Part shown: piece by piece, positions 31,728-47,890 of the stretch
How the letters are laid out: each line of letters opens with the position of its first letter
Position numbering within the stretch: position 1 is the stretch's first letter
Assembly (NCBI GenBank): GCA_016190895.1
Contig: JACPPR010000030.1
Span: 241-64,240 of the forward strand
Reading direction: 5' to 3'
DNA length: 64,000 nucleotides
Source: Chloroflexota bacterium
GTDB taxonomy: Bacteria > Chloroflexota > Dehalococcoidia > Dehalococcoidales > UBA2162
Program-made: the position numbers and the translations under genes
The notes under the pieces: model-generated
The model's database searches: none
Seen by the model: the letters and a program-made list of their open reading frames with translations, nothing else
Told to the model about the DNA's origin: nothing

Positions 31728-31756
31728 TTGACATATTAGCTACAATATGTTAGCTT
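31728..31756 (+). promoter_or_regulatory. Promoter-like element of the glutamate synthase/hisHF cluster
   Basis: TTGACA (31728-33), 17-nt spacer ending in TGT, TAGCTT (31751-56). The spacer holds the inverted repeat CATATT-N6-AATATG (31732-49). Confidence 0.4.
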
Positions 31757-31812
31757 AAGAGACGGAAACTCATTACCGCTAACGGGCTGTGCAGAGAGGG
31801 GTTTTGTTCAAT

Positions 31813-32256: not shown

Positions 32257-32271
32257 TGTGAGAGAGAAGAA

Positions 32272-32898
32272 GTGATTGCGGTAATCGATTACGGCGCCGG
32301 CAATCTGCGCAATGTGGCTAATGCCATCAGCAGGTTGGGCTATGAGCCTAAGATAACCGGTGACCCGGCCGAAGTTTTTAATGCCCAGGCGGTTGTCTTG
32401 CCCGGGGTGGGCGCGGCGGCCGATGCCATGTCTAATCTGGCGAAGCTGAAGCTGGTGCGCCTGATTCGCCGGATTATCGATGAAGATAAGCCTTTTCTGG
32501 GTGTCTGCCTTGGTCTACAGGTGCTCTTTACGGGTACTGAAGAGGGCGGCTGGCACGAGTGTCTCGGCATTATACCGGGAAGCGTGCGGAAACTGCCGGC
32601 CGGGCTGAAGATACCTCATATGGGCTGGAACCAGGTCAGGCAAAAGATGACGCACCCGATTTTTGAGGGTGTGCCGGATGAGGCTAATTTTTACTTCGTG
32701 CATAGCTATTATGCCGAGCCGGAGGACAAATCGTTGGTCGCCGGTGAAACCGATTACGGCATTCCGTTCTGCAGCGTCATCGCCCGGGGAAACCTGGTAG
32801 CAACCCAGTTCCATCCGGAGAAGAGCGGCGAGCTGGGGCTGAAGATTTATGATAATTTCATCAAGCTTGCTCTTGGAGCGAAGGCAGGCCGTAACTAA
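32272..32898 (+). CDS. hisH: Imidazole glycerol phosphate synthase, glutamine amidotransferase subunit
   Basis: IAVIDYGAGNLRNV, GVCLGLQ, QFHPEKS; GTG start. Confidence 0.9.
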   Translation: MIAVIDYGAGNLRNVANAISRLGYEPKITGDPAEVFNAQAVVLPGVGAAADAMSNLAKLKLVRLIRRIIDEDKPFLGVCLGLQVLFTGTEEGGWHECLGIIPGSVRKLPAGLKIPHMGWNQVRQKMTHPIFEGVPDEANFYFVHSYYAEPEDKSLVAGETDYGIPFCSVIARGNLVATQFHPEKSGELGLKIYDNFIKLALGAKAGRN

Positions 32899-32927
32899 TG
32901 CGAGTTTGGAAGTGACGTAAGCAATTT

Positions 32928-33015
32928 CCTCTCCCTTGAGGGGAGAGGTTAGGTGAGGGTGATATGATTCTGTGACCCCTCACCCTTATTCCCTCTCCCG
33001 CAAGGGGAGAGGGAG
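32928..33015. repeat. GGGAGAGG-hairpin repeat family, symmetric double copy
   Basis: CCTCTCCCttgaGGGGAGAGG ... CCCTCTCCCgcaaGGGGAGAGGG, with inner inverted repeat GGTGAGGGTG/CCCCTCACCC. Confidence 0.75.
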
Positions 33016-33034
33016 ATTGGATGGCTGAGAGAAA

Positions 33035-34405
33035 ATGGCTACTAAAAAGATAGAGAAAGTAAAATACCTGATTATCGGGAACTCGGCGGGAGGCATCGGG
33101 GCGGTGGAGGCTATCCGTGAGAAAGACAAGACGGGGACGATTGCCATCATCTCGGACGAGCCTTACCCGGCTTACTCACGGCCGCTCATCTCACCCTATC
33201 TGGCTCACGAGCGCACTCTGGAGAGTATGCTCTACCGCCCGGCTGATTTCTATGAAAAGAATAGCGTCCAGGCTTTTCTGGGCGTCAAAGTGGAGCGGCT
33301 CGACCTGGAGAACCATGCCATCGACCTGGCGGACAAAGGCAGAATCGAGTGGCAGAAGCTCTTGCTGGCTACAGGCGGGGTGCCGATTTTCCCCAAGACC
33401 GAAGGCAGCGACCTGAAAGGCGTCTTTACCTTTACCACCCTGGATGATGCTAAAGTTATCGACAAGTTCCTGGGTAAGCCCCTTCGACAAGCTCAGGGCA
33501 AGCCCTCAAAGAAAAAGGTGAAAGCGGTGGTTATCGGCGGCGGCCTTATCGGGGTCAGCGTCACCGAAGCCCTGGTCAAACGCGGGGTTGCTGTAACCAT
33601 CGTCGAGCTGAGGGAGCGGGTGCTGAATGTCATTCTCGATGAAGTCGCCTCGGCTTTGGCTGATGAAGCCCTGAAGAAGGTCGGCGTTAAGATTGTCACC
33701 GGTCACACGGTAAGTAAAATAACGGGCGATTCGGCGGGCAATGTGGCCGGCGCTATTTTCGATGATGGCAAAGAACTGCCCTGCGATATGGTGATTGTCG
33801 CCATCGGCGTCCAGCCCCGCCTGGAACTGGTGAAAGATACAGGGATAAAGGTGAACCGCGGTATTGTAGTCGACCGTCATATGACTACTTCTAATCCGGA
33901 TGTTTACGCCTGCGGGGATGTCGCCGAGGCTTATGATTTTGTTCTCGGGATAAACCGGCTCACCCCCATATGGCCCAATGCCTATGTCGGGGGCAGAGTC
34001 GCCGGCTTGAATATGGCGGGCGTCCCGACCGATTACCCGGGCGGCACGGCGATGAACTCTTCGCACTACTTCGGCGTTAGCGTTGTCTCGGCAGGGGTAG
34101 TCACTCCCACGGGCGATGGTTATGAGGAACTCAGCGCCCGCAGCGACCATTCTTACAAGAAGGTCCTTGTGAAAGACGGGCTGGTGGTGGGCATGGTCTT
34201 CAGCGGCGACATCGAGAAAGCGGGCATAATTTACAATTTGATAAAAGACAAAGTGAAGGTAGAGGCTTTCAAGCAAACTCTTGTCGCCAGTGATTTCGGT
34301 TTGCTCTCTTTGCCTGAAGAGAGGTGGCGGCCGAAACTGGAATTGCCGGCCAAGGCAGCCCCTTCAGCAGCCTCTGGCAAGAGTGGTTCTCCCACAGGGC
34401 ACTAA
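33035..34405 (+). CDS. FAD-dependent NAD(P)H oxidoreductase (NirB/rubredoxin-reductase/Nox-like)
   Basis: Two Rossmann motifs (IIGNSAGGIGA, VIGGGLIGVSV) and YSRPLIS. Contains a repeat-derived segment at 33479-33506. Confidence 0.82.
   Translation: MATKKIEKVKYLIIGNSAGGIGAVEAIREKDKTGTIAIISDEPYPAYSRPLISPYLAHERTLESMLYRPADFYEKNSVQAFLGVKVERLDLENHAIDLADKGRIEWQKLLLATGGVPIFPKTEGSDLKGVFTFTTLDDAKVIDKFLGKPLRQAQGKPSKKKVKAVVIGGGLIGVSVTEALVKRGVAVTIVELRERVLNVILDEVASALADEALKKVGVKIVTGHTVSKITGDSAGNVAGAIFDDGKELPCDMVIVAIGVQPRLELVKDTGIKVNRGIVVDRHMTTSNPDVYACGDVAEAYDFVLGINRLTPIWPNAYVGGRVAGLNMAGVPTDYPGGTAMNSSHYFGVSVVSAGVVTPTGDGYEELSARSDHSYKKVLVKDGLVVGMVFSGDIEKAGIIYNLIKDKVKVEAFKQTLVASDFGLLSLPEERWRPKLELPAKAAPSAASGKSGSPTGH
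33479..33506 (+). repeat. Same 28-nt repeat unit inside the FAD oxidoreductase CDS
   Basis: CCCCTTCGACAAGCTCAGGGCAAGCCCT, encoding PLRQAQGKP. Confidence 0.8.
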
Positions 34406-34430
34406 TACTGATTAGGCAGGGATGTAGCTA

Positions 34431-35570
34431 ATGGAAGATTTACAAAAGATTAACAATCCTTACGGTGCCGATAAGGTAATCGATTCCTGTTCCATCTTCG
34501 GAATGATGGATACCTCGGGGCGCCGGTTCTCCGGCGAGGACATCACCAAGGCGATTGCCAATATGCACTTCAGGGGCAACGGTCTGGGGGGCGGGCTGGC
34601 TGTCTACGGTATTTATCCCGATTATGCCGACCATTACGCCTTTCATATTATGTACCTGAGCCCGCAGGGACAGCAGCAAACGGAGGCTTTCCTGAAGGAC
34701 AAATTCTACATGGTCAAAGCTGAGGAAGTGCCGATGCGGCCGATTCCGGCGATTGTCAATCCGCCGGCAGTCTGGCGCTACTTCCTCGATGTCAAGCAGG
34801 ACAGGCGCGGCGCTGAATCTGCCGACGACTATGTAGTCGAGCGGGTGATGGATATCAATACCAAGCTGAAAGACAGCTTTGTTTTCTCCAGCGGCAAGAA
34901 TATGGGCGTGTTCAAGGGAGTCGGGTATCCGGAGGAGATATCCGAATACTTCCGTCTGGAAGAATATGAAGGTTATCTCTGGACTGCCCACGGCCGTTTC
35001 CCGACCAACACGCCGGGCTGGTGGGGGGGCGCTCACCCGTTCAGTATTCTCGATTGGACGGTGGTTCACAACGGAGAGATTTCCTCTTACGGCATCAACC
35101 GCCGCTACCTGGAGCAGTTCGGCTATCAGTGCACGATGCAGACCGATACCGAGGTGGTCGCTTACGCTATCGACCTTCTCATTCGCAGGCATAACCTGCC
35201 CATCGAAATAGCGGCCGAGGTGCTGGCGGCGCCCTTCTGGAGCGATATCGAGCGGATGCCGCCGAAGGAGCAGAAGCTGGCCCGCACTCTGCGACAGGTC
35301 TATCCCGGTCTGCTACTGAACGGGCCGTTCACGATAATTATTGCCCACAATGGCGAAATGATCGGCCTTACCGACCGAATCAGGCTGAGACCCCTGACCG
35401 TAGGTGTCAACGGTAACATGATATATCTCTCCTCGGAGGAGGCCGCCATCCGTCTTATCAGTCCCGAGCTTGACGCCGCCTGGATTCCGAGCGGTGGCGA
35501 GCCGATTATCGGCCGGCTGGGAGTCCAGCTAAAACCGGAACCGTCCGTTGTTAGTGGAGCCAGGTTATAA
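34431..35570 (+). CDS. Class II glutamine amidotransferase, GltB domain-1-like subunit
   Basis: [34 protein letters not shown]. Confidence 0.82.
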
Positions 35571-35571
35571 G

Positions 35572-36354
35572 ATGCTGACCAAGAGGATTATCCCCTGTCT
35601 CGATGTGAAAAATGGCCGGGTGGTCAAGGGAGTCAAGTTCCGCGACCACCGTGATGCCGGTGACCCTGTCGAATTGGCTGCCTTCTATAACGAGCAGGGG
35701 GCTGACGAGCTTGTTTTTTATGATATTACCGCCTCCAGTGATGGGCGGGAAATTATGAGAGAGGTAGTAGAGCGCACCGCCGGTCAGGTATTTATTCCGC
35801 TGACTGTGGGTGGCGGGCTGCGCACTGTGGAGGATATCCGGCAGATGTTAGCAGCCGGCGCCGATAAAGTTTCTATCAATACGGCGGCAGTGCTAGACCC
35901 AGATTTTATTACCCGGGGCGCCGAGCGGTTCGGCAACCAGTGTATCGTTCTGGGGATGGATGCCCGGCGTGTTCCGGGGTCGAACCCGACTCGCTGGGAG
36001 GTGTTCACGCATACCGGGGCAGATGGCGGCCGAACTTCCGGCAGGGATGCTGTGGAGTGGGCTATCGAGGCCGTCAAAAAAGGCGCTGGCGAGATAGTTG
36101 TTAATAGCATCGATGCCGATGGCACTCAGGCCGGCTACGACCTGGAGTTGCTCCGGTCCATTTCCGAGGCAGTCAGCGTGCCCGTAGTGGCTAGCGGCGG
36201 CGCCGGACAGCCTGAAGATTTGTATCAAGCCCTGGTCTCCGGTAAAGCCGATGCTGTGCTGGCAGCCACCATCTTTCATTACGGGACTTATTCGATTAAC
36301 GATGTTAAAGAGTACCTGAGGAAAAAACAAATAGCGGTGCGCGCAAGAGGCTAA
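35572..36354 (+). CDS. hisF: Imidazole glycerol phosphate synthase, cyclase subunit
   Basis: [23 protein letters not shown] ... [21 protein letters not shown] 35572 lies 1 nt after the upstream stop. Confidence 0.92.
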
Positions 36355-36359
36355 ATTAA

Positions 36360-36408
36360 GGTAGCGCAGGCGTCCTCGCCTGTGCTTGCAGGCGGGATGC
36401 CTGTAATA
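36360..36408. repeat. Same hairpin family
   Basis: GCGCAGGCGtcctCGCCTGTGC plus a second hairpin, after hisF. Confidence 0.75.
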
Positions 36409-36460
36409 CCGAGAGGTGAAGAAGTAAAAGACCGATTGAGGTTGGGGTGGAGTAGGAATA

Positions 36461-37966
36461 ATGAAAACGTTTTTACCTGCTAAATTCAAAGTAGACAGGA
36501 GCTCAGACCGGTGCATTCAGTGTCAGGTCTGTGTTAACCAGTGCAGCTTCGATGTCCATTATTATGACGCCGAAGACAACGAAGTGCGCAGCCGCGAAGA
36601 GAATTGCGTCGGTTGCCACCGTTGCGCCATCTTCTGCCCGGCCCGCGCCCTGACCATCAGCCGGAACCCGATGGACTATCGGGATAATTTGAACTGGCGT
36701 GGCGAAACTATCGAGGATATCTTCAAACAGGCGGAAACCGGCGGTATGCTTCTGACCGGTATGGGTGACGACAAAGGGCAGCGCATCTACTGGGACCATT
36801 TGGTCTTGAATGCTAGCCAGGTTACCAATCCATCTATCGACCCGCTGCGGGAACCGATGGAGTTGGTCACCTATATCGGGCGCAAACCCGACCGGGTGAC
36901 CATCGACCCGGTGACTCGTGAACTGAAGACGGATTTAGCTCCGCAAATCAAACTGGAAATACCGGTGATGTTTTCGGCGATGTCTTACGGCGCCGTCAGC
37001 CTTAATGTGCAGGAGTCTCTTGCCAGGGCGGCCACCGAGTTCGGCACCCTGTGGAACACGGGCGAGGGCGGGCTTCAATCTAGCCTGTTCAAGTATGGCA
37101 AGAACACCATCGTCCAGGTGGCATCGGGACGTTTCGGAGTGCACTCCGATTACCTAAATGCCGGACAGGTGGTTGAGATAAAGATTGGTCAGGGCGCCAA
37201 GCCCGGTATCGGCGGCCACCTGCCGGGGGAGAAGGTGAGCCTGGATGTTTCACTCACCAGGATGATACCCCAGGGCACCGATGCTCTGTCACCGGCGCCA
37301 CAGCACGATATCTACTCCATCGAGGACCTGGCGCAGTTGGTCTATGCCCTGAAAGAAGCCACCAATTACACCAAACCCATCTCGGTGAAGATTGCTGCCG
37401 TCCACAATGCGGCGGCTATTGCCAGCGGTATGGTCAGAGCTGGCGCCGATATCATTTGTCTTGACGGCCTGAGGGGAGCTACCGGAGCCGCTCCCAAGGT
37501 GATTCGTGACAATGTCGGCATTCCCATCGAGATGGCGCTGGCGGCGGTGGATTCCCGCCTGAGACAGGAAGGTATCCGTAACCAGGCTTCGGTAGTCATT
37601 GCCGGCGGTATTAGAAGCGCCGGTGACGTGGCTAAGGCGATTGCCCTGGGGGCGGACGCTGTTTACATCGGGACGGCGGCTCTGATTGCACTGGGCTGCC
37701 ATGTCTGCCAGCAGTGTCACACAGGCAAATGCGCCTGGGGTATCTGCACCTCCGACCTGGGTCTGACCAAGAGAATCAATCCTGACATCGGCGCCCAGAG
37801 ACTGGTCAATTTGTTGCGCGCCTGGAGTCTGGAGCTGAAAGATATTCTCGGCGGCCTGGGCGTCAATGCCCTGGAAAGCCTGAGGGGCAACCGCTTGCAC
37901 TTGCGGGGCATCGGACTGACTGATACCGAACTGGATATCCTCGGCGTAAAGATGGTAGGAGCTTAG
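36461..37966 (+). CDS. Glutamate synthase FMN-binding (GltB domain 2) subunit with N-terminal 2x[4Fe-4S]
   Basis: CIQCQVCVNQC, CVGCHRCAIFCP, KIGQGAKPGIGGHLPG, LRGATGAAP. Confidence 0.88.
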   Translation: MKTFLPAKFKVDRSSDRCIQCQVCVNQCSFDVHYYDAEDNEVRSREENCVGCHRCAIFCPARALTISRNPMDYRDNLNWRGETIEDIFKQAETGGMLLTGMGDDKGQRIYWDHLVLNASQVTNPSIDPLREPMELVTYIGRKPDRVTIDPVTRELKTDLAPQIKLEIPVMFSAMSYGAVSLNVQESLARAATEFGTLWNTGEGGLQSSLFKYGKNTIVQVASGRFGVHSDYLNAGQVVEIKIGQGAKPGIGGHLPGEKVSLDVSLTRMIPQGTDALSPAPQHDIYSIEDLAQLVYALKEATNYTKPISVKIAAVHNAAAIASGMVRAGADIICLDGLRGATGAAPKVIRDNVGIPIEMALAAVDSRLRQEGIRNQASVVIAGGIRSAGDVAKAIALGADAVYIGTAALIALGCHVCQQCHTGKCAWGICTSDLGLTKRINPDIGAQRLVNLLRAWSLELKDILGGLGVNALESLRGNRLHLRGIGLTDTELDILGVKMVGA

Positions 37967-37967
37967 A

Positions 37968-38729
37968 ATGACAAAAACAGCCGGCAATTCGGTAGTAAAA
38001 ATAGATACCACGGGCATTTTATATAAAGAGCTTAATGCTCGACTGAGGGAGATAGCTTCGGATAGTGTCGAGAAGGTCGAGCTTTACAATGTCTGCGGGC
38101 AGAGATACATCGGCACGGACCTGAACAGGCCGATTCAGATTGATATCTACGGCACGCCTGGCAACGACCTGGGCGCTTTTATGAACGGGCCGAAGATTGT
38201 CGTACACGGCAATGCCCAGGACGGCTGCGGCAACACTATGAATGAGGGCGAAATAATCGTTCACGGACACGCCGGAGATGTCCTCGGCCTATCGGCGCGC
38301 GGTGGCAAAATCTTCGTCCGTGATTACGTCGGTTATCGAGCCGGCATTCATATGAAAGAGTATAAGGAAAAGAAACCGACGCTGGTTATCGGCGGTACTG
38401 CTCAGGATTTTGCCGGTGAGTATATGGCCGGAGGCGTGCTGGTTCTACTAGGTCTGAATCTCGCTGAAGGGGAGAAACACAAGGCAAAATACATCGGCAC
38501 CGGTATGCACGGCGGTGTTATTTACCTTAGGGGCGAGGTCGAGAAGTACCAGTTAGGCCCTGAAGTTGGCGTCGCCGAACTGGATGAGAAGGACAATCAA
38601 GTTCTACGGACGCTGGTCGGTGAGTTCGCCGGCCACTTCGGGTATCCGGCTGACAAGATACTGAACCATAAGTTTATGAAACTGTATCCTCGCTTTCTTC
38701 GCCCTTACGGAAGGCTTTACGCTTATTAA
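37968..38729 (+). CDS. Glutamate synthase GXGXG (GltB C-terminal beta-helix) subunit
   Basis: VHGNAQDGCGNTMNEGEIIVHGHAGDVLG repeats. Confidence 0.85.
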   Translation: MTKTAGNSVVKIDTTGILYKELNARLREIASDSVEKVELYNVCGQRYIGTDLNRPIQIDIYGTPGNDLGAFMNGPKIVVHGNAQDGCGNTMNEGEIIVHGHAGDVLGLSARGGKIFVRDYVGYRAGIHMKEYKEKKPTLVIGGTAQDFAGEYMAGGVLVLLGLNLAEGEKHKAKYIGTGMHGGVIYLRGEVEKYQLGPEVGVAELDEKDNQVLRTLVGEFAGHFGYPADKILNHKFMKLYPRFLRPYGRLYAY

Positions 38730-38762: not shown

Positions 38763-39437
38763 ATGCTGCGCCTGCTGATTATAGCCCCGGAAAGTAAGGC
38801 ACTGGCGGAGCTGGCCACCGCCCTGAACCAAAAAGATATTGCCTGTGCAACGGCATCTCCTGACGGTGAAATGACGGAGTTAATCGCCCGTCAATCTCCG
38901 GATTTGGTTATGGTTGAGGTGGGCGGGCGTTTTCCAGATTCAGCCACGTGGGAGCTTATTCACGGAATAAAGCGCGAGCGTTCTCTACCGGTTATCGCTC
39001 TGGTAGCCGGCGAAGTGTCCGAAGAAATCAACGGCTATTTTGAAGTAGATGATTTTCTTGTTCGCCCCTACGATCTCAGCGAACTGCTAATCAGAGCCAA
39101 GCGGCTGCTGCAGAACTGCAAGGCTGTCAGCGGCAGCGAGCTGATTAAGTGTGACGGCCTGGTGATAGACGTGACGAATTGCGATGTGACGGTGGGCGGG
39201 AAAGTCGTCGAGCTTACCTTCAAGGAGTACGAGTTATTGAAGCTGCTGGCGGCGAACCGGGGCCGGGTTTACACCCGTCAGGACTTGCTCAACAAAATCT
39301 GGGGCTATGACTACTACGGCGGTGACAGGACTGTCGATGTCCACGTCAGGCGCCTCAGAAGCAAGATAGAAGGACCCGGTGAGGTCTTCATCGAGACAGT
39401 CAGAAACGTCGGCTACCGGTTTAAGAAAGACGCCTGA
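38763..39437 (+). CDS. OmpR/PhoB-family winged-helix regulator with degenerate (pseudo-)receiver domain
   Basis: The C-terminus is typical (LTFKEYELLKLLAANRGRVYTRQDLL...TVDVHVRRLRSKIE...VRNVGYRF). The receiver lacks the canonical residues: LLIIAPES replaces the DD pocket, PDLVMVEV replaces the phospho-Asp, ALVAG replaces Thr, and VRPY replaces Lys-Pro. Confidence 0.85.
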   Translation: MLRLLIIAPESKALAELATALNQKDIACATASPDGEMTELIARQSPDLVMVEVGGRFPDSATWELIHGIKRERSLPVIALVAGEVSEEINGYFEVDDFLVRPYDLSELLIRAKRLLQNCKAVSGSELIKCDGLVIDVTNCDVTVGGKVVELTFKEYELLKLLAANRGRVYTRQDLLNKIWGYDYYGGDRTVDVHVRRLRSKIEGPGEVFIETVRNVGYRFKKDA

Positions 39438-39540: not shown

Positions 39541-39709
39541 TAGATTGCACTACTGCTCTGCTATCATGCCCAATGTGCGGCTATGATGCTCTAAGGAACC
39601 CGGTCCAACCAGCAGGCAGGATTGCCACCGGTCGAATCTAGCTGTGTATTATTAGCAAGTCACCAATCGGTTAGTGGCTCGCCTCAGTACGATAAGGGTG
39701 GAACGATTA

Positions 39710-41014
39710 ATGACTGACGTCAATATTCTAGTCAATGTGATATTAGTATTAGGCGCTGCTGTGGTCGGCGGCGCTTTGGCTCTCCGCCTGAAACAACCTG
39801 TTATCCTTGGATATCTCGTTGCTGGTCTTATCGTAGGACCATTCACTCCTGGTCCGCAAGCCGACTTCGACCAGTTTCGCTTCCTGACGGAGGTCGGTCT
39901 GGGTTTGCTTCTATTTGTGCTTGGGGCCGGCTTGCCTCCTTCGCGATTTCGGGGACTGGGAACTGTCATCGTATTAGGGGGAGCCATCCAAATTACGCTT
40001 GTTAGTGCGCTGGGGTTTCTCTTTATGCTCTGGTTTAGCCTGAGCCTGGCACAGGCGTTCTTGTTGGGTGCCATTCTGGCTCAGTCGAGTAGCGCGGTGA
40101 TAGCAAAGGTTCTCGATGACCGCAACGAGACTGAATCGGTTCACGGACGGATTGCCGTCGGTATGAGTGTCGTTCAGGACCTTTCTTCTCTCCCTCTGCT
40201 ACTCTTGTTGTTGGTCTTCCTCGGGCAAAACGATGTGACGCTTTCATCCTTCATTGTTACCATTGGCGAGGTATTTGGCATCGCCATCTTTATGTATGTC
40301 ATAGGCAAGGTCATCTGGCCCCGGTTTCTGGAGTGGATTGGATACATGGGTTCCGATGAATTGACTATTTTGGTGGCGTTGCTTCTCGCGTTGGGTGGCG
40401 GACTCCTGTTGCAACAGATTGGACTTTCCTTCACACTTGGGGCTTTTCTTGCAGGCCTAGTAATTGCGGAATCTCCTCAACGCCAGGAAGCGGTTTCCAG
40501 GATGTTACCGCTAAGGGATGTCTTCGCCGCCATGTTTTTCGTTTCTATCGGAGCTTTGTTTAATCCGTCTGTACTCTGGCAATTACCCATCCCGCTAATT
40601 GGACTTCTGAGTACTCTGGTCATAGGCAAGGCGCTAATCACGGGCGTCGTGGTCAGGACATTCGGGCAAAGCGCTTCCACTGCCATTCTCACGGGACTGC
40701 TTCTCGCTCAGATTGGCGAGTTCGCGTTTATTTTAGCCAATATCGGGCTGGAACACGGTGCTATCACACAAGAATTATTCTCTCTAATAATAGCTGCAGC
40801 TGTTATCAGCATTTTCATAAATTCGTTGATTTTGGATTCGGCGCCTCCGGTACTTGTAGCATTGGCCAGGATTATGCGATTCAACGCGCTTTTGAAGCAA
40901 CCTCCTGGGTCTGTCACATCGACCTTTAGAAGAGGCCGTTCGATGGCTGACGGGTCAAGGGTTCAAAGCTCATCCTTCCAATCACGGAAGGACAAAACTC
41001 AAAACCATAGCTAA
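39710..41014 (+). CDS. Cation:proton antiporter (CPA2/Kef-type membrane domain only)
   Basis: Multi-TM. ATG 39710 after SD AAGGGTGGA. No TrkA/KTN domain. Confidence 0.8.
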   Translation: MTDVNILVNVILVLGAAVVGGALALRLKQPVILGYLVAGLIVGPFTPGPQADFDQFRFLTEVGLGLLLFVLGAGLPPSRFRGLGTVIVLGGAIQITLVSALGFLFMLWFSLSLAQAFLLGAILAQSSSAVIAKVLDDRNETESVHGRIAVGMSVVQDLSSLPLLLLLLVFLGQNDVTLSSFIVTIGEVFGIAIFMYVIGKVIWPRFLEWIGYMGSDELTILVALLLALGGGLLLQQIGLSFTLGAFLAGLVIAESPQRQEAVSRMLPLRDVFAAMFFVSIGALFNPSVLWQLPIPLIGLLSTLVIGKALITGVVVRTFGQSASTAILTGLLLAQIGEFAFILANIGLEHGAITQELFSLIIAAAVISIFINSLILDSAPPVLVALARIMRFNALLKQPPGSVTSTFRRGRSMADGSRVQSSSFQSRKDKTQNHS

Positions 41015-41118
41015 GAACTCAAAACTCCTTTTTGCAGTTTTGGTATACTGATTTTTCTTTACCTAGTTACTTTTGAGTTGTGGTTTTAACCTTTAAGCTT
41101 TCACTTTTTACCTCTCCT

Positions 41119-41178
41119 GTAACACAGATTTAATCTGTCCGTAACTTACATTTAACCTCTTTGTAATTCCACCGAAAC
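41119..41178 (+). promoter_or_regulatory. Six 11-bp phased pentamer boxes (candidate activator site) upstream of sORF-amt1
   Basis: GTAAC 41119, TTAAT 41130, GTAAC 41141, TTAAC 41152, GTAAT 41163, GAAAC 41174. Confidence 0.6.
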
Positions 41179-41220
41179 AATCGGGCGTTAAGCTAGATAT
41201 AAAACGCAAGGAGGTTACCG

Positions 41221-41343
41221 ATGTCGATTGAAGCAATCCTGGCCGCAGTATCTTTCATTGGGCTTTTCACCGCCTGGGTGATTCTGCCCAGCCGCCTGCA
41301 CAAGCGCCACGCCGCTAGAGAACAGAACGAATCCCTCGAATAG
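41221..41343 (+). CDS. Candidate 40-aa single-TM small protein upstream of amt1
   Basis: Read manually. Strong SD AAGGAGG lies 6 nt before the ATG. Product MSIEAILAAVSFIGLFTAWVILPSRLHKRHAAREQNESLE. Confidence 0.4.
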   Translation: MSIEAILAAVSFIGLFTAWVILPSRLHKRHAAREQNESLE

Positions 41344-41355
41344 CAAAACCTTCAT

Positions 41356-41452
41356 CCTCACCCCGTTCGGCTACGCTCAGGGCAGGCTCTAACCCTCTCC
41401 GACCTCACCCCTGTCCCCTCTCCGCTTGCGGAGAGGGGGAGAAAGAGGAGAG
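41356..41452. repeat. GGGAGAGG-hairpin repeat family
   Basis: Contains CCCCTCTCCGCTTGCGGAGAGGGG, identical to the core at 56192-56215. Confidence 0.75.
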
Positions 41453-41503
41453 GTTGTTTGGGGACGGACACAAGGAATGTTTGGGTTTTGAAAGGAGGAT
41501 TTT

Positions 41504-43009
41504 TTGTTTATGAAAGACCGCTTATCGGACACGATGGAATCAGTGAAATCTACCTTGTCTCCGTTAGCGCCGCTGGTCAAGCGGCGCTGGTTCAAAGGAC
41601 TGGTAATGGCGTTCATTCTGTTCGGGGCTTTCTGGGGATTGCCGGCTATCGCCCGCGCCGCCGACCCGACCGGCACGGATACTTTTAACGCTAATCCCAA
41701 CAGCGCCGTCAATATGGCCTGGACGCTCATCACCGGTTTCCTGGTCTGGTTTATGCAGCTCGGTTTCGCCTTCCTGGGCGCCGGTCTGATTCGCTCCAAG
41801 AATCAGACTAACTACTGGACGAAGAGCTTTATGGATTTTTGTATCGCCTCGCTGGGCTTCTGGGCATTTGGGTTCGCCCTGATGTTCGGAGGCTCGAAGT
41901 TATTTCCCGGCCTAGATGACGGTAATGCGTGGATAGGTTTTTCCGGGTTTTTCCTGAGCGGCGGCGCCTATGATGTCTCGACGATTATGATGTGGTTCTT
42001 CCAGATGGTCTTTGCCGCTACCGCCACGACTATCGTTGCCGGCGCCGTGGCCGAAAGGATGAAGATTTCTGCCTACCTGGCTTACGCCTTTATTATCGGC
42101 GCTCTTATTTATCCTCTCTATGGTAAGTGGATATGGGGTGGCGGGTGGCTGGGCAGCTTAAGTATTGCTGGCGCTGCGGGCGCCAGAGACTTTGCTGGCT
42201 CCAGCGTCGTTCACATGGTCGGCGGATTGGCTGCCCTGATTGGTGCGGCTATGGTCGGACCGAGAATCGGCAGATTCAATAAGGATGGGACGCCCAATAA
42301 CATCAAAGGTCATAACCTGCCTTTTGTCGTTATCGGTACCTTCATCCTTTTCTTCGGCTGGTTCGGTTTTAATCCCGGCAGCACCCTGGCGGCTACCGAC
42401 CTGCGTATCTCGGTCATCGCTGTCAATACTTTCCTGGCCGGCGTTACCGGCGCGGTAGTAGCGCTCTACTGGGTTTTTGCCAAGACCGGCAAGATGGATA
42501 TCATCATGGGCTGCAACGGTAGTCTGGTCGGGCTGGTCGCCGTTACTGCGCCGGCGGCCTATATCGCTCCGTGGGCGGCAGTGCTCATCGGAGCGATAGC
42601 GGTTCCATTCATGTTTGCCACGAATCATGTTGTTGAGCGTGTGCTCAAGGTAGACGATGCCGTAGGCGCCGTCCCGGTGCACCTGGGTGGAGGGATGTGG
42701 GGCATGCTGGCAGTGGGTATTTTCGCCGATGGAACCTATCTAGGGGTCAAGGGACTCATTGCCGGTGAGATAGGCCAGCTAATCCTGCAACTAGTCGCCA
42801 TCGGGACTGTGTTTGTCTGGGTGGGCGTAACGGCCTTCCTTACCTTCTGGGCTATCAGAAAGAGCATCGGTCTGCGGGCTAGCCGTGAAGAAGAGCTGCA
42901 GGGGCTGGATATACCAGAGCACGGCATAGAAGCCTATCCGGCTGATTCCAGTATCACTTTAGGCGGAAGTACTCCTGTTGTTCCAAAGGCGCTCCCGGTT
43001 ACTCGTTAA
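41504..43009 (+). CDS. amt: Ammonium transporter (long form with signal-peptide-like N-terminus)
   Basis: AGSSVVHMVGG and FGWFGFNPGS. Start is TTG 41504 or ATG 41510, after AGGAGG. Confidence 0.92.
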   Translation: MFMKDRLSDTMESVKSTLSPLAPLVKRRWFKGLVMAFILFGAFWGLPAIARAADPTGTDTFNANPNSAVNMAWTLITGFLVWFMQLGFAFLGAGLIRSKNQTNYWTKSFMDFCIASLGFWAFGFALMFGGSKLFPGLDDGNAWIGFSGFFLSGGAYDVSTIMMWFFQMVFAATATTIVAGAVAERMKISAYLAYAFIIGALIYPLYGKWIWGGGWLGSLSIAGAAGARDFAGSSVVHMVGGLAALIGAAMVGPRIGRFNKDGTPNNIKGHNLPFVVIGTFILFFGWFGFNPGSTLAATDLRISVIAVNTFLAGVTGAVVALYWVFAKTGKMDIIMGCNGSLVGLVAVTAPAAYIAPWAAVLIGAIAVPFMFATNHVVERVLKVDDAVGAVPVHLGGGMWGMLAVGIFADGTYLGVKGLIAGEIGQLILQLVAIGTVFVWVGVTAFLTFWAIRKSIGLRASREEELQGLDIPEHGIEAYPADSSITLGGSTPVVPKALPVTR

Positions 43010-43022
43010 CATCAAGAAAGTC

Positions 43023-43055
43023 GGGTACCGCCCCGACATTATCGGGGCGGTACCC
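43023..43055 (+). repeat. Perfect 14-bp stem hairpin after amt1
   Basis: GGGTACCGCCCCGA-catta-TCGGGGCGGTACCC with no T-run. Confidence 0.6.
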
Positions 43056-43200
43056 ACGACCATTAAGCCGGATTCTCCTATCTCAAAGGAAAACAAATGC
43101 TTGAGTTAAGCCAGATTGCAGCAGTTGTTATTTTCGTGGCAATCCTCCATGCCCCGATTGCATCGGGGCACCACGAAGTATGAAAATCGGTCACGAGGAT

Positions 43201-43322
43201 GTCGTCATTCTGGCACGTTCACTTCGTTCAGTGTAAACTCCGGCCAGAATCCACTTCATCACACTCCACTGGATTCCAGCCGGAGTTTACCCCGTACTGC
43301 GATACGGGGCTGGAATGACGGA
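43201..43322. repeat. Composite repeat in the amt1-amt2 spacer
   Basis: Shares CACGTTC..TTCAGTGTAAACTCC with 13383-13410, plus GGATTCC...GGAATGAC ends. Confidence 0.6.
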
Positions 43323-43393
43323 CGGTGGCAGGCTTTTCGTGAGAATGTTTATTGCTATCGTCTACCTTTGGGTTCTGAGTTTTCAGTTTTCTT

Positions 43394-43431
43394 GTAACAT
43401 GTTTTTAACATATCCGTAATATGCTGGAAAC
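43394..43431 (+). promoter_or_regulatory. Four 11-bp phased boxes upstream of amt2
   Basis: GTAAC 43394, TTAAC 43405, GTAAT 43416, GAAAC 43427. Same order as the last four boxes of the amt1 site. Confidence 0.6.
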
Positions 43432-43471
43432 ACTAATGGCATAAGCTGGATGTAAAAGCAAGGAGGAACTT

Positions 43472-44704
43472 ATGCCCATTAATTCCGGTGATACTGCCTG
43501 GATACTGGTTTCGGCAGCCCTGGTGATGCTGATGACGCCGGGGCTGGCTCTTTTCTATGGGGGGATGGTGAGACGGAAGAACGTGCTCTCCACCATGATG
43601 ATGAGCTTCGCCATGCTCGGTCTGGTCGGCATTCTCTGGGTGCTCTATGGGTACAGTTTGAGCTTCGCTCCTGATATAGGTGGCATCATCGGCGGTTTTG
43701 ACTTCTTAGGACTCAAGAATGTCGGGCAGGACCCGTCATCGGTCTATGCCACCACCGTTCCTCACCTGGCCTTTATGATATATCAGGCGATGTTTGCCAT
43801 AATTACCGTCGCCTTATTTACGGGAGCCGTTGTCGACAGGATAAAATTCAGCGCATTGCTTGTCTTTTCGGCTCTGTGGTTGACCCTCATTTACGTTCCG
43901 GTGGCGCACTGGGTGTGGGGCGGCGGGTGGCTGGCGAAGCTGGGCGCCCTCGATTTTGCCGGCGGCACCGTGGTTCATATCAATGCCGGTGTCTCGGCGC
44001 TGGCTTTAGCCCTGCTCCTGGGACCCCGTAAGGGTTTTAAGGACAAGGAGCCTATGGAGGCCCACAATATTCCCTGGGTAATGCTGGGCGCGGGCTTGCT
44101 CTGGTTCGGTTGGTTCGGCTTTAACGCCGGCAGCGCTCTCACGGCTGGCGGGTTGGCTTCCAGCGCATTCGTTGCTACCAATACTGCTGCCGCCAGCGCC
44201 GCTTTCACCTGGATGCTGCTGAGCTGGATTTACCGACGTCCGACGGCTTTGGGAACGGTCACCGGCGCCGTTATCGGACTGGTGGCCATTACTCCTGCGG
44301 CCGGCTTTGTTGCACCGATAATGGGCATTCCCATAGGTATGGGGGCAGCCCTGGTCGGCTATTATGCCATGCTTGTCCGGGCAAAAACGCGGGTGGACGA
44401 TTCTCTGGATGTCCTGGCCTGCCATGGGATGGGGGGTATCTGGGGAGCTTTAGCGACCGGTATTTTTGCCAGCGTCGCTGTCAATTCAGCCGGAGCCGAC
44501 GGCCTGATTTTTGGTAATGCTATGCTGGTCGTCAAACAATTGGTTGCTATCGTCGCCGTTGGAGTCTTTGCCTTCGTCGGCACCTGGATTTTGGGCAAGC
44601 TCGTCGATATCACTATCGGGCTTCGAGTTAGTCCTACTGAAGAAAATCTGGGTCTTGATATATCCCAGCACGGTGAAAGAGCTTATGGAGGGCTTGCACG
44701 ATAA
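43472..44704 (+). CDS. amt: Ammonium transporter
   Basis: 410 aa with DFAGGTVVHINAG and FGWFGFNAGS. Confidence 0.94.
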   Translation: MPINSGDTAWILVSAALVMLMTPGLALFYGGMVRRKNVLSTMMMSFAMLGLVGILWVLYGYSLSFAPDIGGIIGGFDFLGLKNVGQDPSSVYATTVPHLAFMIYQAMFAIITVALFTGAVVDRIKFSALLVFSALWLTLIYVPVAHWVWGGGWLAKLGALDFAGGTVVHINAGVSALALALLLGPRKGFKDKEPMEAHNIPWVMLGAGLLWFGWFGFNAGSALTAGGLASSAFVATNTAAASAAFTWMLLSWIYRRPTALGTVTGAVIGLVAITPAAGFVAPIMGIPIGMGAALVGYYAMLVRAKTRVDDSLDVLACHGMGGIWGALATGIFASVAVNSAGADGLIFGNAMLVVKQLVAIVAVGVFAFVGTWILGKLVDITIGLRVSPTEENLGLDISQHGERAYGGLAR

Positions 44705-44736
44705 TCACCTGAATAACAAACAAAAATATGATTGGT

Positions 44737-44764
44737 GTAGGGGCGCAGCATGCTGCGCCCCTAC
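44737..44764. repeat. Same palindrome family
   Basis: GTAGGGGCGCAGCATGCTGCGCCCCTAC, between amt2 and amt3. Confidence 0.85.
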
Positions 44765-44805
44765 GGAACGGCGGCATGTCTGAAGGTCAAATATTTTATC
44801 TCTTT

Positions 44806-44821
44806 GTAACATGTTCGTAAC
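44806..44821 (+). promoter_or_regulatory. Two GTAAC(AT) direct repeats 11 bp apart upstream of amt3
   Basis: GTAAC at 44806 and 44817. Confidence 0.45.
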
Positions 44822-44871
44822 ATTAGTGGGCTAAACTGCATTTGTAGAATATACAAAGGGAAGGGGAAGTT

Positions 44872-46104
44872 ATGCCCATTAATTCCGGTGATACTGCCTG
44901 GATATTGGTCTCGGCAGCCCTGGTTATGCTCATGACTCCAGGGCTGGCTCTTTTCTACGGGGGGATGGTGCGGCGGAAGAACGTGCTTTCGACTATGATG
45001 ATGAGCTTTGCCATGCTGGGTTTGGTCGGCCTTCTCTGGGTGCTTTATGGCTATAGCCTGAGCTTCGCTCCTGATATGAGTGGCATCATCGGCGGTTTTG
45101 ACTTTATGGGTTTGCGGAACGTTGGACAGGAACCGTCCTCGGTTTATGCCACCACTGTTCCTCACCTGGCCTTTATGATATATCAGGCGATGTTCGCTAT
45201 CATCACTGTCGCCCTCTTCACCGGAGCCGTTGTGGACAGGATAAAGTTCGGCGCTCTGCTGGCGTTCTCAGCCTTGTGGCTGACATTCATCTATACGCCA
45301 GTGGCGCACTGGGTGTGGGGTGGTGGCTGGCTGGCAAAGCTGGGCGTTCTGGACTTCGCCGGCGGCGTGGTAGTTCACATCAATGCCGGTATGTCGGCTT
45401 TGGCTCTGGCTTTGCTGCTGGGTCCCCGCAAGGGTTTTGTTGAAAAGGAACCGATGGAAGCGCACGATATTCCTATGGTGATGCTGGGGGCAGGGTTGCT
45501 CTGGTTCGGCTGGTTCGGCTTCAATGCCGGCAGCGCCTTCACTGCCGGCGGGCTGGCCTCCAGCGCCTTTGTGGCTACGAATACGGCCGGGGCCGCCGCT
45601 GCCTTTACCTGGATGCTGCTTAGCTGGATATACCGCAGACCGACGGCTCTTGGGACAGTCACCGGGGCTGTTATCGGGCTGGCTGCGGTCACTCCGGCCG
45701 CCGGTTTTATCTCGCCGATAATGGGAATACCCATCGGCATCGGGGCGGCGCTGGTTGGGTACTATGCTATGCTTTTCCGGTCGAAATCACGTGTCGATGA
45801 TTCCCTGGATGTTATGGCTGCTCACGGTATGGGTGGTATCTGGGGAGTGCTGGCGACAGGCATATTTGCCAGTGTGGCTGTCAATGCGGCGGGAGCCGAT
45901 GGGCTTATCTTCGGAAACGGAGCGCAGTTACTGAAGCAGATGGCTGGCGTTGTTGCCGTCGGCGGCTTTTCTTTTATCGGGACGCTGATTTTGGGCAAGC
46001 TCGTCGATGCTACTATCGGTCTTAGAGTTACCCGCACTGAAGAGAATTTGGGCCTTGATATATCTCAGCATGGTGAAAGAGCTTATGGAGGGTTGGGAAG
46101 ATGA
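44872..46104 (+). CDS. amt: Ammonium transporter (tandem paralogue of the previous gene)
   Basis: 410 aa; by eye roughly 85-90 percent identical to amt2. Confidence 0.94.
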   Translation: MPINSGDTAWILVSAALVMLMTPGLALFYGGMVRRKNVLSTMMMSFAMLGLVGLLWVLYGYSLSFAPDMSGIIGGFDFMGLRNVGQEPSSVYATTVPHLAFMIYQAMFAIITVALFTGAVVDRIKFGALLAFSALWLTFIYTPVAHWVWGGGWLAKLGVLDFAGGVVVHINAGMSALALALLLGPRKGFVEKEPMEAHDIPMVMLGAGLLWFGWFGFNAGSAFTAGGLASSAFVATNTAGAAAAFTWMLLSWIYRRPTALGTVTGAVIGLAAVTPAAGFISPIMGIPIGIGAALVGYYAMLFRSKSRVDDSLDVMAAHGMGGIWGVLATGIFASVAVNAAGADGLIFGNGAQLLKQMAGVVAVGGFSFIGTLILGKLVDATIGLRVTRTEENLGLDISQHGERAYGGLGR

Positions 46105-46478
46105 AAAAAATAGAAGCTATCATTCGGGAAGAAAGGTTGGAACCTGTCAAACAGGCTCTGGAGGCCGGGGGTTACTTCGCTATGACTGTCACCGAGGTGA
46201 GCGGGCGTGGCGAGCAAAGGGGGCTTACCCTACCCTGGCGAGTCGGAGAGTATCGGGTCGATTTACTGCCTAAACTCAAACTTGAGATTGTCGTTCAGGA
46301 TAAAGAGGTCGATACGATAGTCAAAGCGATTATTGACAATGCCCGGACTGGTGAGATTGGCGATGGTAAGATATTTATCATACCAGTAGAAAACGCAATC
46401 CGCGTCCGCACCAACGAGGATGGCGACAAAGCAATCAATAAAGTAACAAACAATAAGGAGGAAGCAAAGACAAAATGA
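46101..46478 (+). CDS. glnK: PII nitrogen regulatory protein (GlnK-type, amt-linked)
   Basis: TVTEVSGRGEQRG T-loop with conserved Tyr (VGEY) and GDGKIFI. ATGA overlaps on both sides. Confidence 0.92.
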   Translation: MKKIEAIIREERLEPVKQALEAGGYFAMTVTEVSGRGEQRGLTLPWRVGEYRVDLLPKLKLEIVVQDKEVDTIVKAIIDNARTGEIGDGKIFIIPVENAIRVRTNEDGDKAINKVTNNKEEAKTK

Positions 46479-47890
46479 ATTCAACGGAAGTCATAAAGTT
46501 TGCTAAAGAGAAGGGCTGTCAGTTTGTCGACCTCAAGTTCATCGACCTGCCCGGCACCTGGCAGCATTATACTCTGCCTATCAGCGAGCTAAATCAGGAC
46601 CTCTTCGAGGAGGGTAACGGTTTTGACGGTTCTTCGATAAGGGGCTTTCGGCATATCAACGAAAGCGATATGTTGCTGATTCCCGACCCGGCGACGGCTA
46701 TCTGCGACCCGGTACTGGAAGTGCCGACATTGAGCCTGATTTGCGACGTGCGTGACCCGCTCACGGGCAAGGACTACGAGCGTGACCCGCGTAATATCGC
46801 CAAGAAGGCTGAAGCTTATCTGAAGACGACGGGCATTGCCGAGGGTAGTTACTGGGGTCCCGAACTGGAATTTTTCATATTCAACAGCATACGTTTCGAG
46901 CAAAACAGCCATGTCGGCTTCTATGCCATCGATTCCCAGGAGGGCATCTGGAACTCAGGTAATGGCGAGCACAGTAATCTGGGCTACCGCCCCCGTCACA
47001 AGGAAGGCTACTTCCCGGTGCCGCCTACCGACCAGACACACGATATCCGTACTAAAATCGCCCTCAAAATGATGGAGGGTGGTTTGAAGATTGAAAAGCA
47101 TCATCATGAGGTTGCCACTGCCGGACAGGCTGAGTTCGGTATCCGCTTCGATACCCTGACCAGGCAGGCGGATAATGTTATGCTCTACAAGTACATTGCT
47201 AAGAACGTGGCTGTGCAGAATGGCTTTACGGTGACATTCATGCCCAAGCCGCTTTTCCAGGACAATGGTTCAGGAATGCACGTACATCAGAGTCTCTTCA
47301 AGGGCGACAAGAACGTTTTCTACGATGCGAAGGGCTATGCCCTGCTTTCCCAGACGGCTAAACATTATATAGGCGGGCTGCTGGCACATTCACCGGCTTT
47401 GCTGGCGCTCTGCGCTCCGACCACCAACTCTTACCGCCGGCTCGTCCCCGGTTACGAGGCTCCCATCAATCTGGTTTACTCGGCAAGTAACCGCAGCGCC
47501 AGCATTCGTATTCCTCAGTACTCGACCAGTCCGAAGACCAAGAGAATCGAGTACCGCTGCCCGGATTCGAGCAGCAATCCGTATCTGGCCTTCGCCGCCA
47601 TGCTGCTGGCTGGCCTGGATGGCATCAAGAATAAGATTGACCCCGGCGAGCCTATCGACAAGGATATTTATGAGCTTGCGCCGGAAGAAAAGGCCAATAT
47701 CAAGTCAACGCCCGGCTCACTGCTCGAGGTACTGGATGCCCTCCGCGAAGACCATGATTTCCTTCTGAAGGGTGATGTCTTTACCGAGGACCTCATCGAG
47801 ACCTGGATAAACTACAAGAGAAAGAATGAGTATGACCAGGTCGCCCTGCGACCCCATCCCTACGAGTTCCATCTGTACTACGATATTTAG
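46475..47890 (+). CDS. glnA: Glutamine synthetase type I (471 aa)
   Basis: FDGSSIRGF, GSGMHVHQSLF, NSYRRLVPGYEAP. Confidence 0.95.
   Translation: MNSTEVIKFAKEKGCQFVDLKFIDLPGTWQHYTLPISELNQDLFEEGNGFDGSSIRGFRHINESDMLLIPDPATAICDPVLEVPTLSLICDVRDPLTGKDYERDPRNIAKKAEAYLKTTGIAEGSYWGPELEFFIFNSIRFEQNSHVGFYAIDSQEGIWNSGNGEHSNLGYRPRHKEGYFPVPPTDQTHDIRTKIALKMMEGGLKIEKHHHEVATAGQAEFGIRFDTLTRQADNVMLYKYIAKNVAVQNGFTVTFMPKPLFQDNGSGMHVHQSLFKGDKNVFYDAKGYALLSQTAKHYIGGLLAHSPALLALCAPTTNSYRRLVPGYEAPINLVYSASNRSASIRIPQYSTSPKTKRIEYRCPDSSSNPYLAFAAMLLAGLDGIKNKIDPGEPIDKDIYELAPEEKANIKSTPGSLLEVLDALREDHDFLLKGDVFTEDLIETWINYKRKNEYDQVALRPHPYEFHLYYDI

Follow-up and report, generated by a model that had tools for sequence, protein, structure and literature searches.

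The ammonium transporter (amt) promoters in the 64,000 nucleotides of DNA analysed here (the window), which come from a Chloroflexota (Dehalococcoidia-like) MAG, carry tandem arrays of pentamers that are most likely GlnR-type operator/activator sites, and these would belong to a GlnR-like nitrogen module that lies outside Actinobacteria and uses a pseudo-receiver with Glu in place of Asp. We put at roughly three in four the probability that the boxes are head-to-tail sites for the GlnR-like regulator encoded at 38763-39437 and that this regulator activates the amt promoters. The mechanism itself is, in principle, a known one.

The array in front of the sORF-amt1 unit consists of six pentamers on the forward strand, spaced in exact 11-bp register from 41119 to 41178 (Table 1). 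Re-reading of the sequence placed every one of them where an earlier description of this DNA, prepared from its letters alone (hereafter, the sequence-only reading), had put it. The four proximal boxes recur as an exact repeat upstream of amt2, where the array ends 41 nt 5′ of the start codon, and a recount by eye gave the same figures as that reading: all 20 box positions are identical between amt1 and amt2, as are 4 of the 18 spacer positions. The amt3 promoter carries two boxes in the a2/b2 register. An A occupies position 4 in all six boxes at amt1 and likewise in all boxes at amt2 and amt3. The two distal boxes at amt1 read GTAACACAGATTTAAT, which is near the family a1-b1 consensus GTAACAcAgATTTAAC, and such an extra pair is rare, as 1 of 70 related promoters scores at least 8/10 at this location. 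The sORF that follows the array is preceded by aaggagg (41208-41214) as its Shine-Dalgarno sequence; in related loci, too, an sORF often lies between array and amt.

Table 1 Box arrays, −10 elements and neighbouring genes in the window. Box positions relative to the start assume a start about 7 nt after the −10 element (inferred start).
Feature	Position	Strand	Remark
Glutamate synthase operon, split, archaeal-type	31789-38729		
OmpR/PhoB-type regulator, pseudo-receiver, GlnR-like, candidate binder	38763..39437	+	Last gene of the glutamate synthase operon
Na+/H+ exchanger	39674-41014		Between regulator gene and array
Box 1 (a3, distal extra pair) GTAAC	41119..41123	+	In register with the other boxes
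Box 2 (b3, distal extra pair) TTAAT	41130..41134	+	In register with the other boxes
Box 3 (a1) GTAAC	41141..41145	+	About −60 to −56 from inferred start; opens the four-box core common to amt2
Box 4 (b1) TTAAC	41152..41156	+	About −49 to −45 from inferred start
Box 5 (a2) GTAAT	41163..41167	+	About −38 to −34; takes the −35 position
Box 6 (b2) GAAAC	41174..41178	+	About −27 to −23; between −35 and −10
Inferred −10 TAAGCT, sORF-amt1 promoter	41189..41194	+	Conserved TAnnnT, +15 from b2
sORF, 40 aa, hydrophobic	41221..41343	+	First gene 3′ of the array
amt1, ammonium transporter, 501 aa	41504..43009	+	Pfam PF00909, E = 3e-116
amt2 four-box array GTAAC-N6-TTAAC-N6-GTAAT-N6-GAAAC	43394..43431	+	Exact repeat of the proximal four amt1 boxes
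Inferred −10 TAAGCT, amt2	43442..43447	+	Same +15 spacing from b2
amt2, ammonium transporter, 410 aa	43472..44704	+	Pfam PF00909
amt3 two-box array GTAAC-N6-GTAAC	44806..44821	+	Boxes at 44806 and 44817; a2/b2 register
Inferred −10 TAAACT, amt3-PII-glnA operon	44832..44837	+	Match to composite pattern
amt3 (44872-46104), PII (46101-46478), glutamine synthetase, glnA (46475-47890)	44872..47890	+	

The gene order around the three arrays comes from Pfam and NCBIfam scans of the gene calls in the window. The regulator gene starts 33 nt after the last gltS gene, and amt3, PII and glnA, whose stop and start codons overlap, likely form an operon. Farther 3′ lie a tRNA synthetase gene, a second glutamine synthetase (GS) gene, an unannotated 578-aa ORF, whose position corresponds to that of the NAD synthase gene in related loci, and, at 54406-55401, an NrpR-like gene. 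A search against Rfam found no family at the gathering threshold in the window and no more than chance-level matches in the 41000-45000 region.

Within the window, the arrays are specific to the amt promoters. With up to three mismatches allowed, the four-box pattern matches at amt1 and amt2 and nowhere else in the 64 kb (0.00 expected from 100 shuffles), and a looser score (KWAAY four times, at least 18/20) again singles out these two promoters in the window (0.13 expected). A composite search, in which an a2 box and a b2 box are followed by a −10-like hexamer (box-N6-G[TA]AAC-N9-11-TAnnnT), gives three matches in the window, namely the three amt promoters, at 0.02 expected. No further array was found in the window, be it 5′ of the glutamate synthase operon, of the second GS gene (51043) or of the tRNA synthetase gene. 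Chance alone would yield 0.01-0.2 such arrays in the window.

To measure conservation without reference to the DNA pattern, we used orthologous loci that had been fetched by homology to the regulator protein (L081, L084, L085, L207, L208 and, through the genome scan, L002). The gene order gltS-(NrpR-like)-regulator-amt(-amt)-PII-glnA is complete in L081, L084, L085 and L207 and is kept in L208 as far as PII, and every locus fetched in this way has an array 5′ of an amt gene. Across eight promoters obtained without the pattern, the mean pairwise identity is 96% at the 20 box positions and 45% at the 18 spacer positions; by the same method it is 47% in the linker and 81% in the downstream (−10) hexamer. 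The footprint-like contrast that had been noticed between two promoters of one genome, and for which orthologous amt promoters had been named as the place to look, is therefore seen there as well: boxes are kept while spacers drift, and their conservation over the eight promoters is a true phylogenetic footprint.

A wider sample was obtained by scanning JGI metagenome contigs with GTAAY-N6-TTAAY-N6-GTAAY-N6-GAAAC, a pattern of about 37 bits for which a handful of chance matches was estimated and which returned at least 120. Among the matches listed, 89 of 120 lie directly 5′ of an amt gene on the same strand, and 93 of 120 have an amt or GS gene as their target (GS four times, one of them via an sORF); one further array precedes a PII-like match and one a homologue of the regulator. 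The sequence-only reading had put forward enrichment at nitrogen-metabolism genes as a check, and the great majority of these 120 matches are at amt and GS genes. Furthermore, 56 of the 89 amt-linked arrays in this list follow a gene homologous to the regulator at 38763 at a distance below 200 nt. Removal of near-duplicates left 70 non-redundant promoters, the amt proteins behind which are 56-94% identical to amt2, with the extended consensus tttGTAACAcAgATTTAACct..ctGTAATaT..tgGAAACAaT...c.g.TA.acT. Conservation can be measured without bias in the columns that the search pattern did not cover, and several of these are strongly conserved in the 70 promoters: the A after box 1 (81%), the AT before box 2 (89% and 84%) and the A right after the GAAAC of b2 (97%).

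The same promoters reveal the −10 element. A TAnnnT hexamer begins 15 nt after the G of GAAAC, a spacing that is fixed in 83% of the 70 promoters, with T1, A2 and T6 present in 97%, 86% and 97% of them (1.8, 1.4 and 1.8 bits), respectively. At amt1 this hexamer is TAAGCT. The sequence-only reading had taken TATAAA (41198-41203) for the −10 element, and the columns that correspond to it carry almost no information in the 70 promoters; we rejected TATAAA on this ground. It would also place the start within the Shine-Dalgarno sequence. The rest of the promoter shifts accordingly, by about 9 bp: it is GTAAT that occupies the −35 position, and GAAAC, which had been described as overlapping −35, lies between −35 and −10. 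The resemblance drawn to PhoB/OmpR class II promoters gives way to the layout described for the transcription activation complex of GlnR. Hence, of the earlier description, the tandem, footprint-like and GlnR-like operator stands and the promoter geometry does not, and the corrected −10 improves the match to GlnR.

Neither the three amt promoters nor the consensus of the 70 promoters, among which ATCTGT and ATATTT are the commonest sequences at the −35 position, have a TTGACA-like hexamer 17 bp 5′ of the −10 element, and a scan for consensus sigma-70 promoters came up empty in all three amt upstream regions. Because they have no usable −35, the three amt promoters look activator-dependent. This bears on the possibility that the same regulator sits on the boxes as a repressor, which would occupy −38 to −23 and block RNA polymerase when nitrogen is sufficient. 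The a2 and b2 boxes do cover the −35 position and the spacer, a common location for an operator, a protein bound between −35 and −10 might repress just as well, and actinobacterial GlnR represses some of its targets too (PMC10704036). However, the activator-dependent look extends from the three promoters to the 70-promoter consensus, the fixed helical phasing of the four boxes to −10 is that of the GlnR activation complex (PMC10235972), and a repressor would not need two more boxes that reach out to −60. We consider repression unlikely and activation by the GlnR-like regulator the better reading of these promoters.

The regulator is a protein of 224 residues with a strong match to the Trans_reg_C domain and a weak match to the receiver domain (Pfam/NCBIfam). 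A 188-aa NCBI entry matches it at 100% identity, and relatives carry the labels Chloroflexota or Dehalococcoidales. Across the family the winged helix hardly varies, and the position of the phospho-acceptor is occupied by Glu (E52) in 25 of 25 members. The remainder of the phosphorylation pocket is gone as well: DD is replaced by A-P/x, T by V/A/S/P and K by R/S. No histidine kinase gene was found next to the regulator gene in the window or in L081-L086, L207 and L208.

In a search of the PDB, the closest solved relatives are the GlnR entries 8HIG, 8HIH and 8HML. The margin is narrow when the full-length family profile is used (146 bits for GlnR vs 142 for RegX3); with the DNA-binding domains alone, GlnR scores 131 bits and the next protein, YycF, 103. 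The residues with which S. erythraea GlnR reads the bases of GTAAC, R186, V190, R193 and R194 (PMC10235972), align to R189, V193, R196 and R197 of the regulator, and in its family the three arginines are invariant and V193 is V or T. These base-contact residues also occur in PhoB-type proteins and are necessary, not sufficient. A residue table of 107 OmpR-family proteins separates a canonical group (DDE / D / LTA / K) from an atypical one that lacks the pocket and carries GG-x-RTVDVH(V/I)RRLR; the latter comprises actinobacterial GlnR, Acidimicrobiia GlnR-like proteins and the Chloroflexota family. Bona fide actinobacterial GlnR proteins in the sample are 58-79% identical to SaeGlnR. A scan of a genome collection with the regulator alignment yielded mostly distant relatives among the matches listed (at most 44% identity over the full length), and these served as the outgroup and the GlnR sample. 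Neighbour-joining recovers the Chloroflexota family as monophyletic in 100 of 100 bootstraps; together with actinobacterial GlnR, as a separate lineage, it falls into an atypical-receiver clade, set off from canonical PhoB/PhoP/WalR-like regulators, in 60 of 60, in a sample that had been pre-selected with two OmpR-generic peptide patterns and holds no RegX3, MtrA or PrrA. Judged by its sequence, the regulator is kin to GlnR, which is also its closest solved relative, and is a possible orthologue of it.

About 25 of the metagenome matches listed are not at amt or GS genes, and several of them, about six in all, precede phosphate genes. These include a gene for a PstS-like binding protein (L112, with a degraded copy in L140 and L203), a PstB-like ATPase (L160), a Na/Pi cotransporter (L172) and a metallophosphoesterase (L173). 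At eight further loci (L088, L096, L129, L149, L151, L168, L170 and L186) the array is followed by TATAAT and a Nudix/RapZ-like operon, and Firmicute loci near PhoP/WalR-like regulators have GTAAC-type four-repeat arrays about 11 nt from TATAAT. Because the same pattern precedes phosphate genes in other organisms, the box sequence alone does not identify the binder: across the loci compared, the pentamer pattern is common to the PhoB/PhoP/WalR/GlnR branch of OmpR proteins and insufficient by itself to name the protein. This agrees with the reported binding of PhoP, and likewise of MtrA, at GlnR target promoters in Streptomyces (PMC2691820, PMC10704036).

The arrays at the amt genes could, by the same token, be Pho-box-like sites for a canonical PhoB/PhoP- (or WalR/MtrA-) type regulator that is encoded elsewhere in the genome and acts instead of the adjacent regulator or in competition with it, which would tie ammonium uptake to phosphate or another signal. 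The identical pattern at PstS-like, PstB-like and Na/Pi-cotransporter genes of other metagenomic organisms, the Firmicute arrays and the Streptomyces precedents all speak for such sites. Nevertheless, amt genes outnumber phosphate genes 89 to about six among the 120 matches listed, more than half of the amt arrays come immediately after the gene of a GlnR-like regulator, and the window contains neither a canonical OmpR-type paralogue nor a pst gene. We regard a distant Pho-type regulator as improbable, slightly more so than repression. Thus, it is gene linkage (56 of the 89 amt arrays among the matches listed) and the identity of the targets, not the sequence of the boxes, that assign the arrays to the adjacent regulator. 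The idea that no protein is involved and that the periodic AA reflects intrinsic curvature of the upstream DNA or a repeat that arose by chance, attractive insofar as DNA can be bent by AA steps in 11-bp phase, has almost nothing left to recommend it, as the G at position 1 and the C/T at position 5 show the same degree of conservation as AA, the distance from array to −10 is fixed, and it is effectively refuted by the chance expectation of about zero matches and by promoter conservation that spans amt proteins just 56-94% identical to amt2.

We propose the following mechanism for the GlnR-like regulator. Each 11-bp unit would accommodate one winged-helix domain, so that four protomers would line up on a1-b1-a2-b2 (41141-41178), from about −60 to −23. 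The bound protomers would make up for the absent −35 element and bring RNA polymerase to TAAGCT (41189-41194), the −10 element. Nitrogen scarcity would in this manner switch on sORF-amt1 and, alike, amt2 and amt3-PII-glnA. [quoted passage not shown]

With no phosphorylatable receiver and no partner kinase, the regulator is probably controlled through its abundance or by another signal. The glutamate synthase operon has a good sigma-70 promoter (TTGACA at 31728-31733, TAGCTT at 31752-31757), 3′ of which lies an inverted repeat of the conserved form GGnA-N6-TnCC, represented in the window by GGAAactcatTACC (31764-31777). The operator of archaeal and bacterial NrpR is GGAA-N6-TTCC, and we take the repeat in the window to resemble it. 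In L084, L085 and L207 an NrpR-like gene is located directly 5′ of the regulator gene. The regulator gene is the last of the glutamate synthase operon, and the NrpR-like operator lies at the promoter of that operon; the arrangement suggests a hypothetical two-tier cascade in which an NrpR-like repressor would set the level of the sensor-less regulator and the latter would activate the amt promoters. A broader and distinctly tentative extension, which we consider possible and would not expect to hold in full, is that GlnR-type control is an older or horizontally shared, Terrabacteria-wide module, of which Chloroflexota (possibly also Armatimonadota and Omnitrophota) may have a sensor-less Glu variant; a 2-oxoglutarate-responsive, NrpR-like repressor might then determine the amount of regulator, which in turn might switch on the amt, PII and glnA promoters as a four-protomer activation complex.

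The literature presents GlnR as the master regulator of nitrogen in Actinobacteria, and our full-text search of a paper library found no paper that links GlnR to Chloroflexi, Dehalococcoidia or Dehalococcoides or that describes a module of the kind proposed here. If the reading proposed here is true, (i) nitrogen regulation would become predictable from sequence in a large, mostly uncultured phylum that includes groups relevant to subsurface and dehalogenating communities, (ii) the motif tttGTAACAcAgATTTAACct..ctGTAATaT..tgGAAACAaT-N7-TAnnnT would be ready for regulon prediction in metagenomes, and (iii) the unusual activation geometry of GlnR, in which a single protomer sits between −35 and −10, would prove evolutionarily widespread and not a mycobacterial peculiarity. 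The family further offers a natural Asp-to-Glu variant for probing the dimerisation and control of orphan receivers, and its usefulness extends to regulon prediction in Chloroflexota and to the evolution of GlnR.

Of the systems that regulate comparable genes, cyanobacterial NtcA also acts at nitrogen-regulated amt/glnA promoters, at a site that begins with GTA, lies 5′ of −10 and takes the place of −35. However, NtcA is a CRP-family dimer that binds the palindrome GTA-N8-TAC, whereas the units described here are four to six direct repeats of the GTA-N8-TTA kind. We ruled out an NtcA-type site for this reason; the neighbouring genes that we examined include no member of the CRP family. A link to NrpR is offered by the NrpR-like gene in the window and by its counterparts that adjoin the regulator gene in related loci. 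The amt boxes are not inverted repeats, however, and the NrpR-like palindrome is found at the promoter of the glutamate synthase operon instead; an NrpR operator at the amt promoters was ruled out, as no GGAA-N6-TTCC comes after GGAAAC.

The Pho box bound by PhoB/PhoP (E. coli PhoB) is closer in form, with head-to-tail direct repeats, an 11-bp periodicity, replacement of the −35 element and similar box sequences. The B. subtilis PhoP box consists of four copies of TT(A/T/C)ACA between −60 and −20, and the cyanobacterial SphR box of CTTAACCT repeats. Those regulators, however, rely on a phosphorylatable receiver of the canonical type and on a PhoR kinase and control phosphate genes, whereas we find a pseudo-receiver and nitrogen genes: DD, D, T and K are absent from the adjacent regulator, and its putative targets are amt genes, which sets it outside the PhoB/PhoP group.

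The closest parallel is actinobacterial GlnR with its boxes at amtB/glnA promoters, as known from S. coelicolor, M. tuberculosis and S. erythraea. Its a and b sites have the consensus GTAAC (gTnAc / GaAAc) and are six bases apart, the M. smegmatis box being t/gTAAC-n6-Gc/aAAC; a typical promoter is arranged as a1-b1-a2-b2, and that of S. coelicolor amtB has three pairs, or six sites; the A at position 4 is irreplaceable; and four protomers bind head to tail (PMC10235972, PMC10704036). The Streptomyces box that the sequence-only reading had quoted, gTnAc-n6-GaAAc-n6-GtnAC-n6-GAAAc, agrees with PMC10704036 (Table 2) and PMC10235972. In the cryo-EM structure, for which an amtB scaffold from −64 to +13 was used, the GlnR protomer on b2 is located downstream of a non-optimal −35 and contacts the β flap and σ region 4 (PMC10235972).

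Several features set the Chloroflexota system apart. Its host is not an actinobacterium, and its regulator is about 45% identical to SaeGlnR over residues 69-219 (measured for L084). The conserved Asp50 that stabilises the GlnR homodimer is the invariant Glu52, a conservative acidic change; Acidimicrobiia GlnR-like proteins vary at this position too. The b1 box is TTAAC instead of GaAAc, the regulator gene ends the glutamate synthase operon beside its targets, and binding to the boxes is predicted. On the other side of the comparison, both regulators combine an OmpR/PhoB-type winged helix, in which the recognition helix RTVDVHVRRLR is identical and the base-contact residues are the same (8HIG, 8HIH, 8HML), with an atypical receiver devoid of DD, T and K, and both are orphans with no partner kinase. 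Both systems have GTAAC/GAAAC-type boxes of 5 nt with a 6-nt spacing and A at position 4, arranged in two or three a-b pairs (four sites at amt2 and six at amt1; amt3 has two boxes only). If the start follows the conserved −10 as assumed, a2 would fall at −35, b2 downstream of a non-optimal −35 and a1 near −60, as in GlnR promoters, and the putative targets, amt, PII and glnA, correspond to the amtB-glnK and glnA genes that GlnR controls.

In related loci fetched via the gene for the GlnR-like, OmpR/PhoB-type regulator, the four-box array lies close behind the regulator stop codon, at a distance of less than 200 nt. Among the listed metagenome matches to GTAAY-N6-TTAAY-N6-GTAAY-N6-GAAAC, 89 are associated with amt, and 56 of these show the same placement. 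Some Chloroflexota relatives (loci L007, at position 10744, L121, L142, L187 and L192) carry the array before glutamine synthetase instead of amt, and at locus L189 it precedes a homologue of the regulator itself. This placement is suggestive of a small regulon whose members vary and in which the regulator may control its own gene.

An identical four-box pattern is found upstream of phosphate-uptake genes encoding PstS-like and PstB-like proteins, a Na/Pi cotransporter and a metallophosphoesterase (L112, L140, L160, L172, L173 and L203). These loci belong to other organisms, some of them high-GC, in which the pattern presumably acts as Pho boxes. A separate conserved element is present in eight further loci (L088, L096, L129, L149, L151, L168, L170 and L186), where the four boxes are followed by a TATAAT-like hexamer (e.g. 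TATAAT, TATGAT) and then by a conserved TTGACCCCCTTTT-like stretch. The element lies about 190–400 nt upstream of a gene for a Nudix hydrolase and/or a RapZ-like P-loop protein (yvcI-yvcJ-like), and the transcript leader is conserved within this group.

Between the array and amt, at least 20 metagenome loci (including L094, L097, L100, L106, L110, L134, L144 and L164) contain a conserved small ORF of about 40–75 amino acids. The ORFs share a motif like (D)IxxIxxLWxxLSPRLxR, to which the window ORF shows only a loose fit; their product may act as a leader peptide or as a small membrane protein that partners Amt. The amt1–amt2 intergenic region (window 43010–43390) contains several long GC-rich hairpins. 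No T-runs accompany them on the + strand, and they may represent terminators or elements of the REP-like type.

Coordinates of features in the window and in related loci
Feature	Position	Details
Small ORF	41221-41343	40 aa, hydrophobic, contains …TAWVILPSRLHKR…
Intergenic hairpin	43022-43056	16-bp stem
Other intergenic hairpins	near 43150-43175; 43235-43300	
Na+/H+ exchanger gene	39674-41014	inserted between regulator and amt1 array
Glutamate synthase operon promoter with inverted repeat	31728-31777	canonical promoter; TTGACA 31728, TAGCTT 31752
GGnA-N6-TnCC repeat	31764-31777	GGAAactcatTACC
NrpR-like gene	54406-55401	PF01995 and winged helix
NrpR-like genes, relatives	L084 8984-9997; L085 8984-9997; L207 104-1117	

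The bacterial nitrogen cluster of the window also contains an NrpR-like gene. In several relatives, such a gene lies directly upstream of that for the GlnR-like regulator, separated from it by 3 nt, and a second NrpR-like copy follows the NAD synthase gene. The GlnR-like regulator is encoded by the final gene of the glutamate synthase operon. Alignment of this operon's promoter (A2) revealed an inverted repeat, GGnA-N6-TnCC, downstream of TAGCTT that is conserved in the window, L081, L084 and L085 and resembles an NrpR operator.
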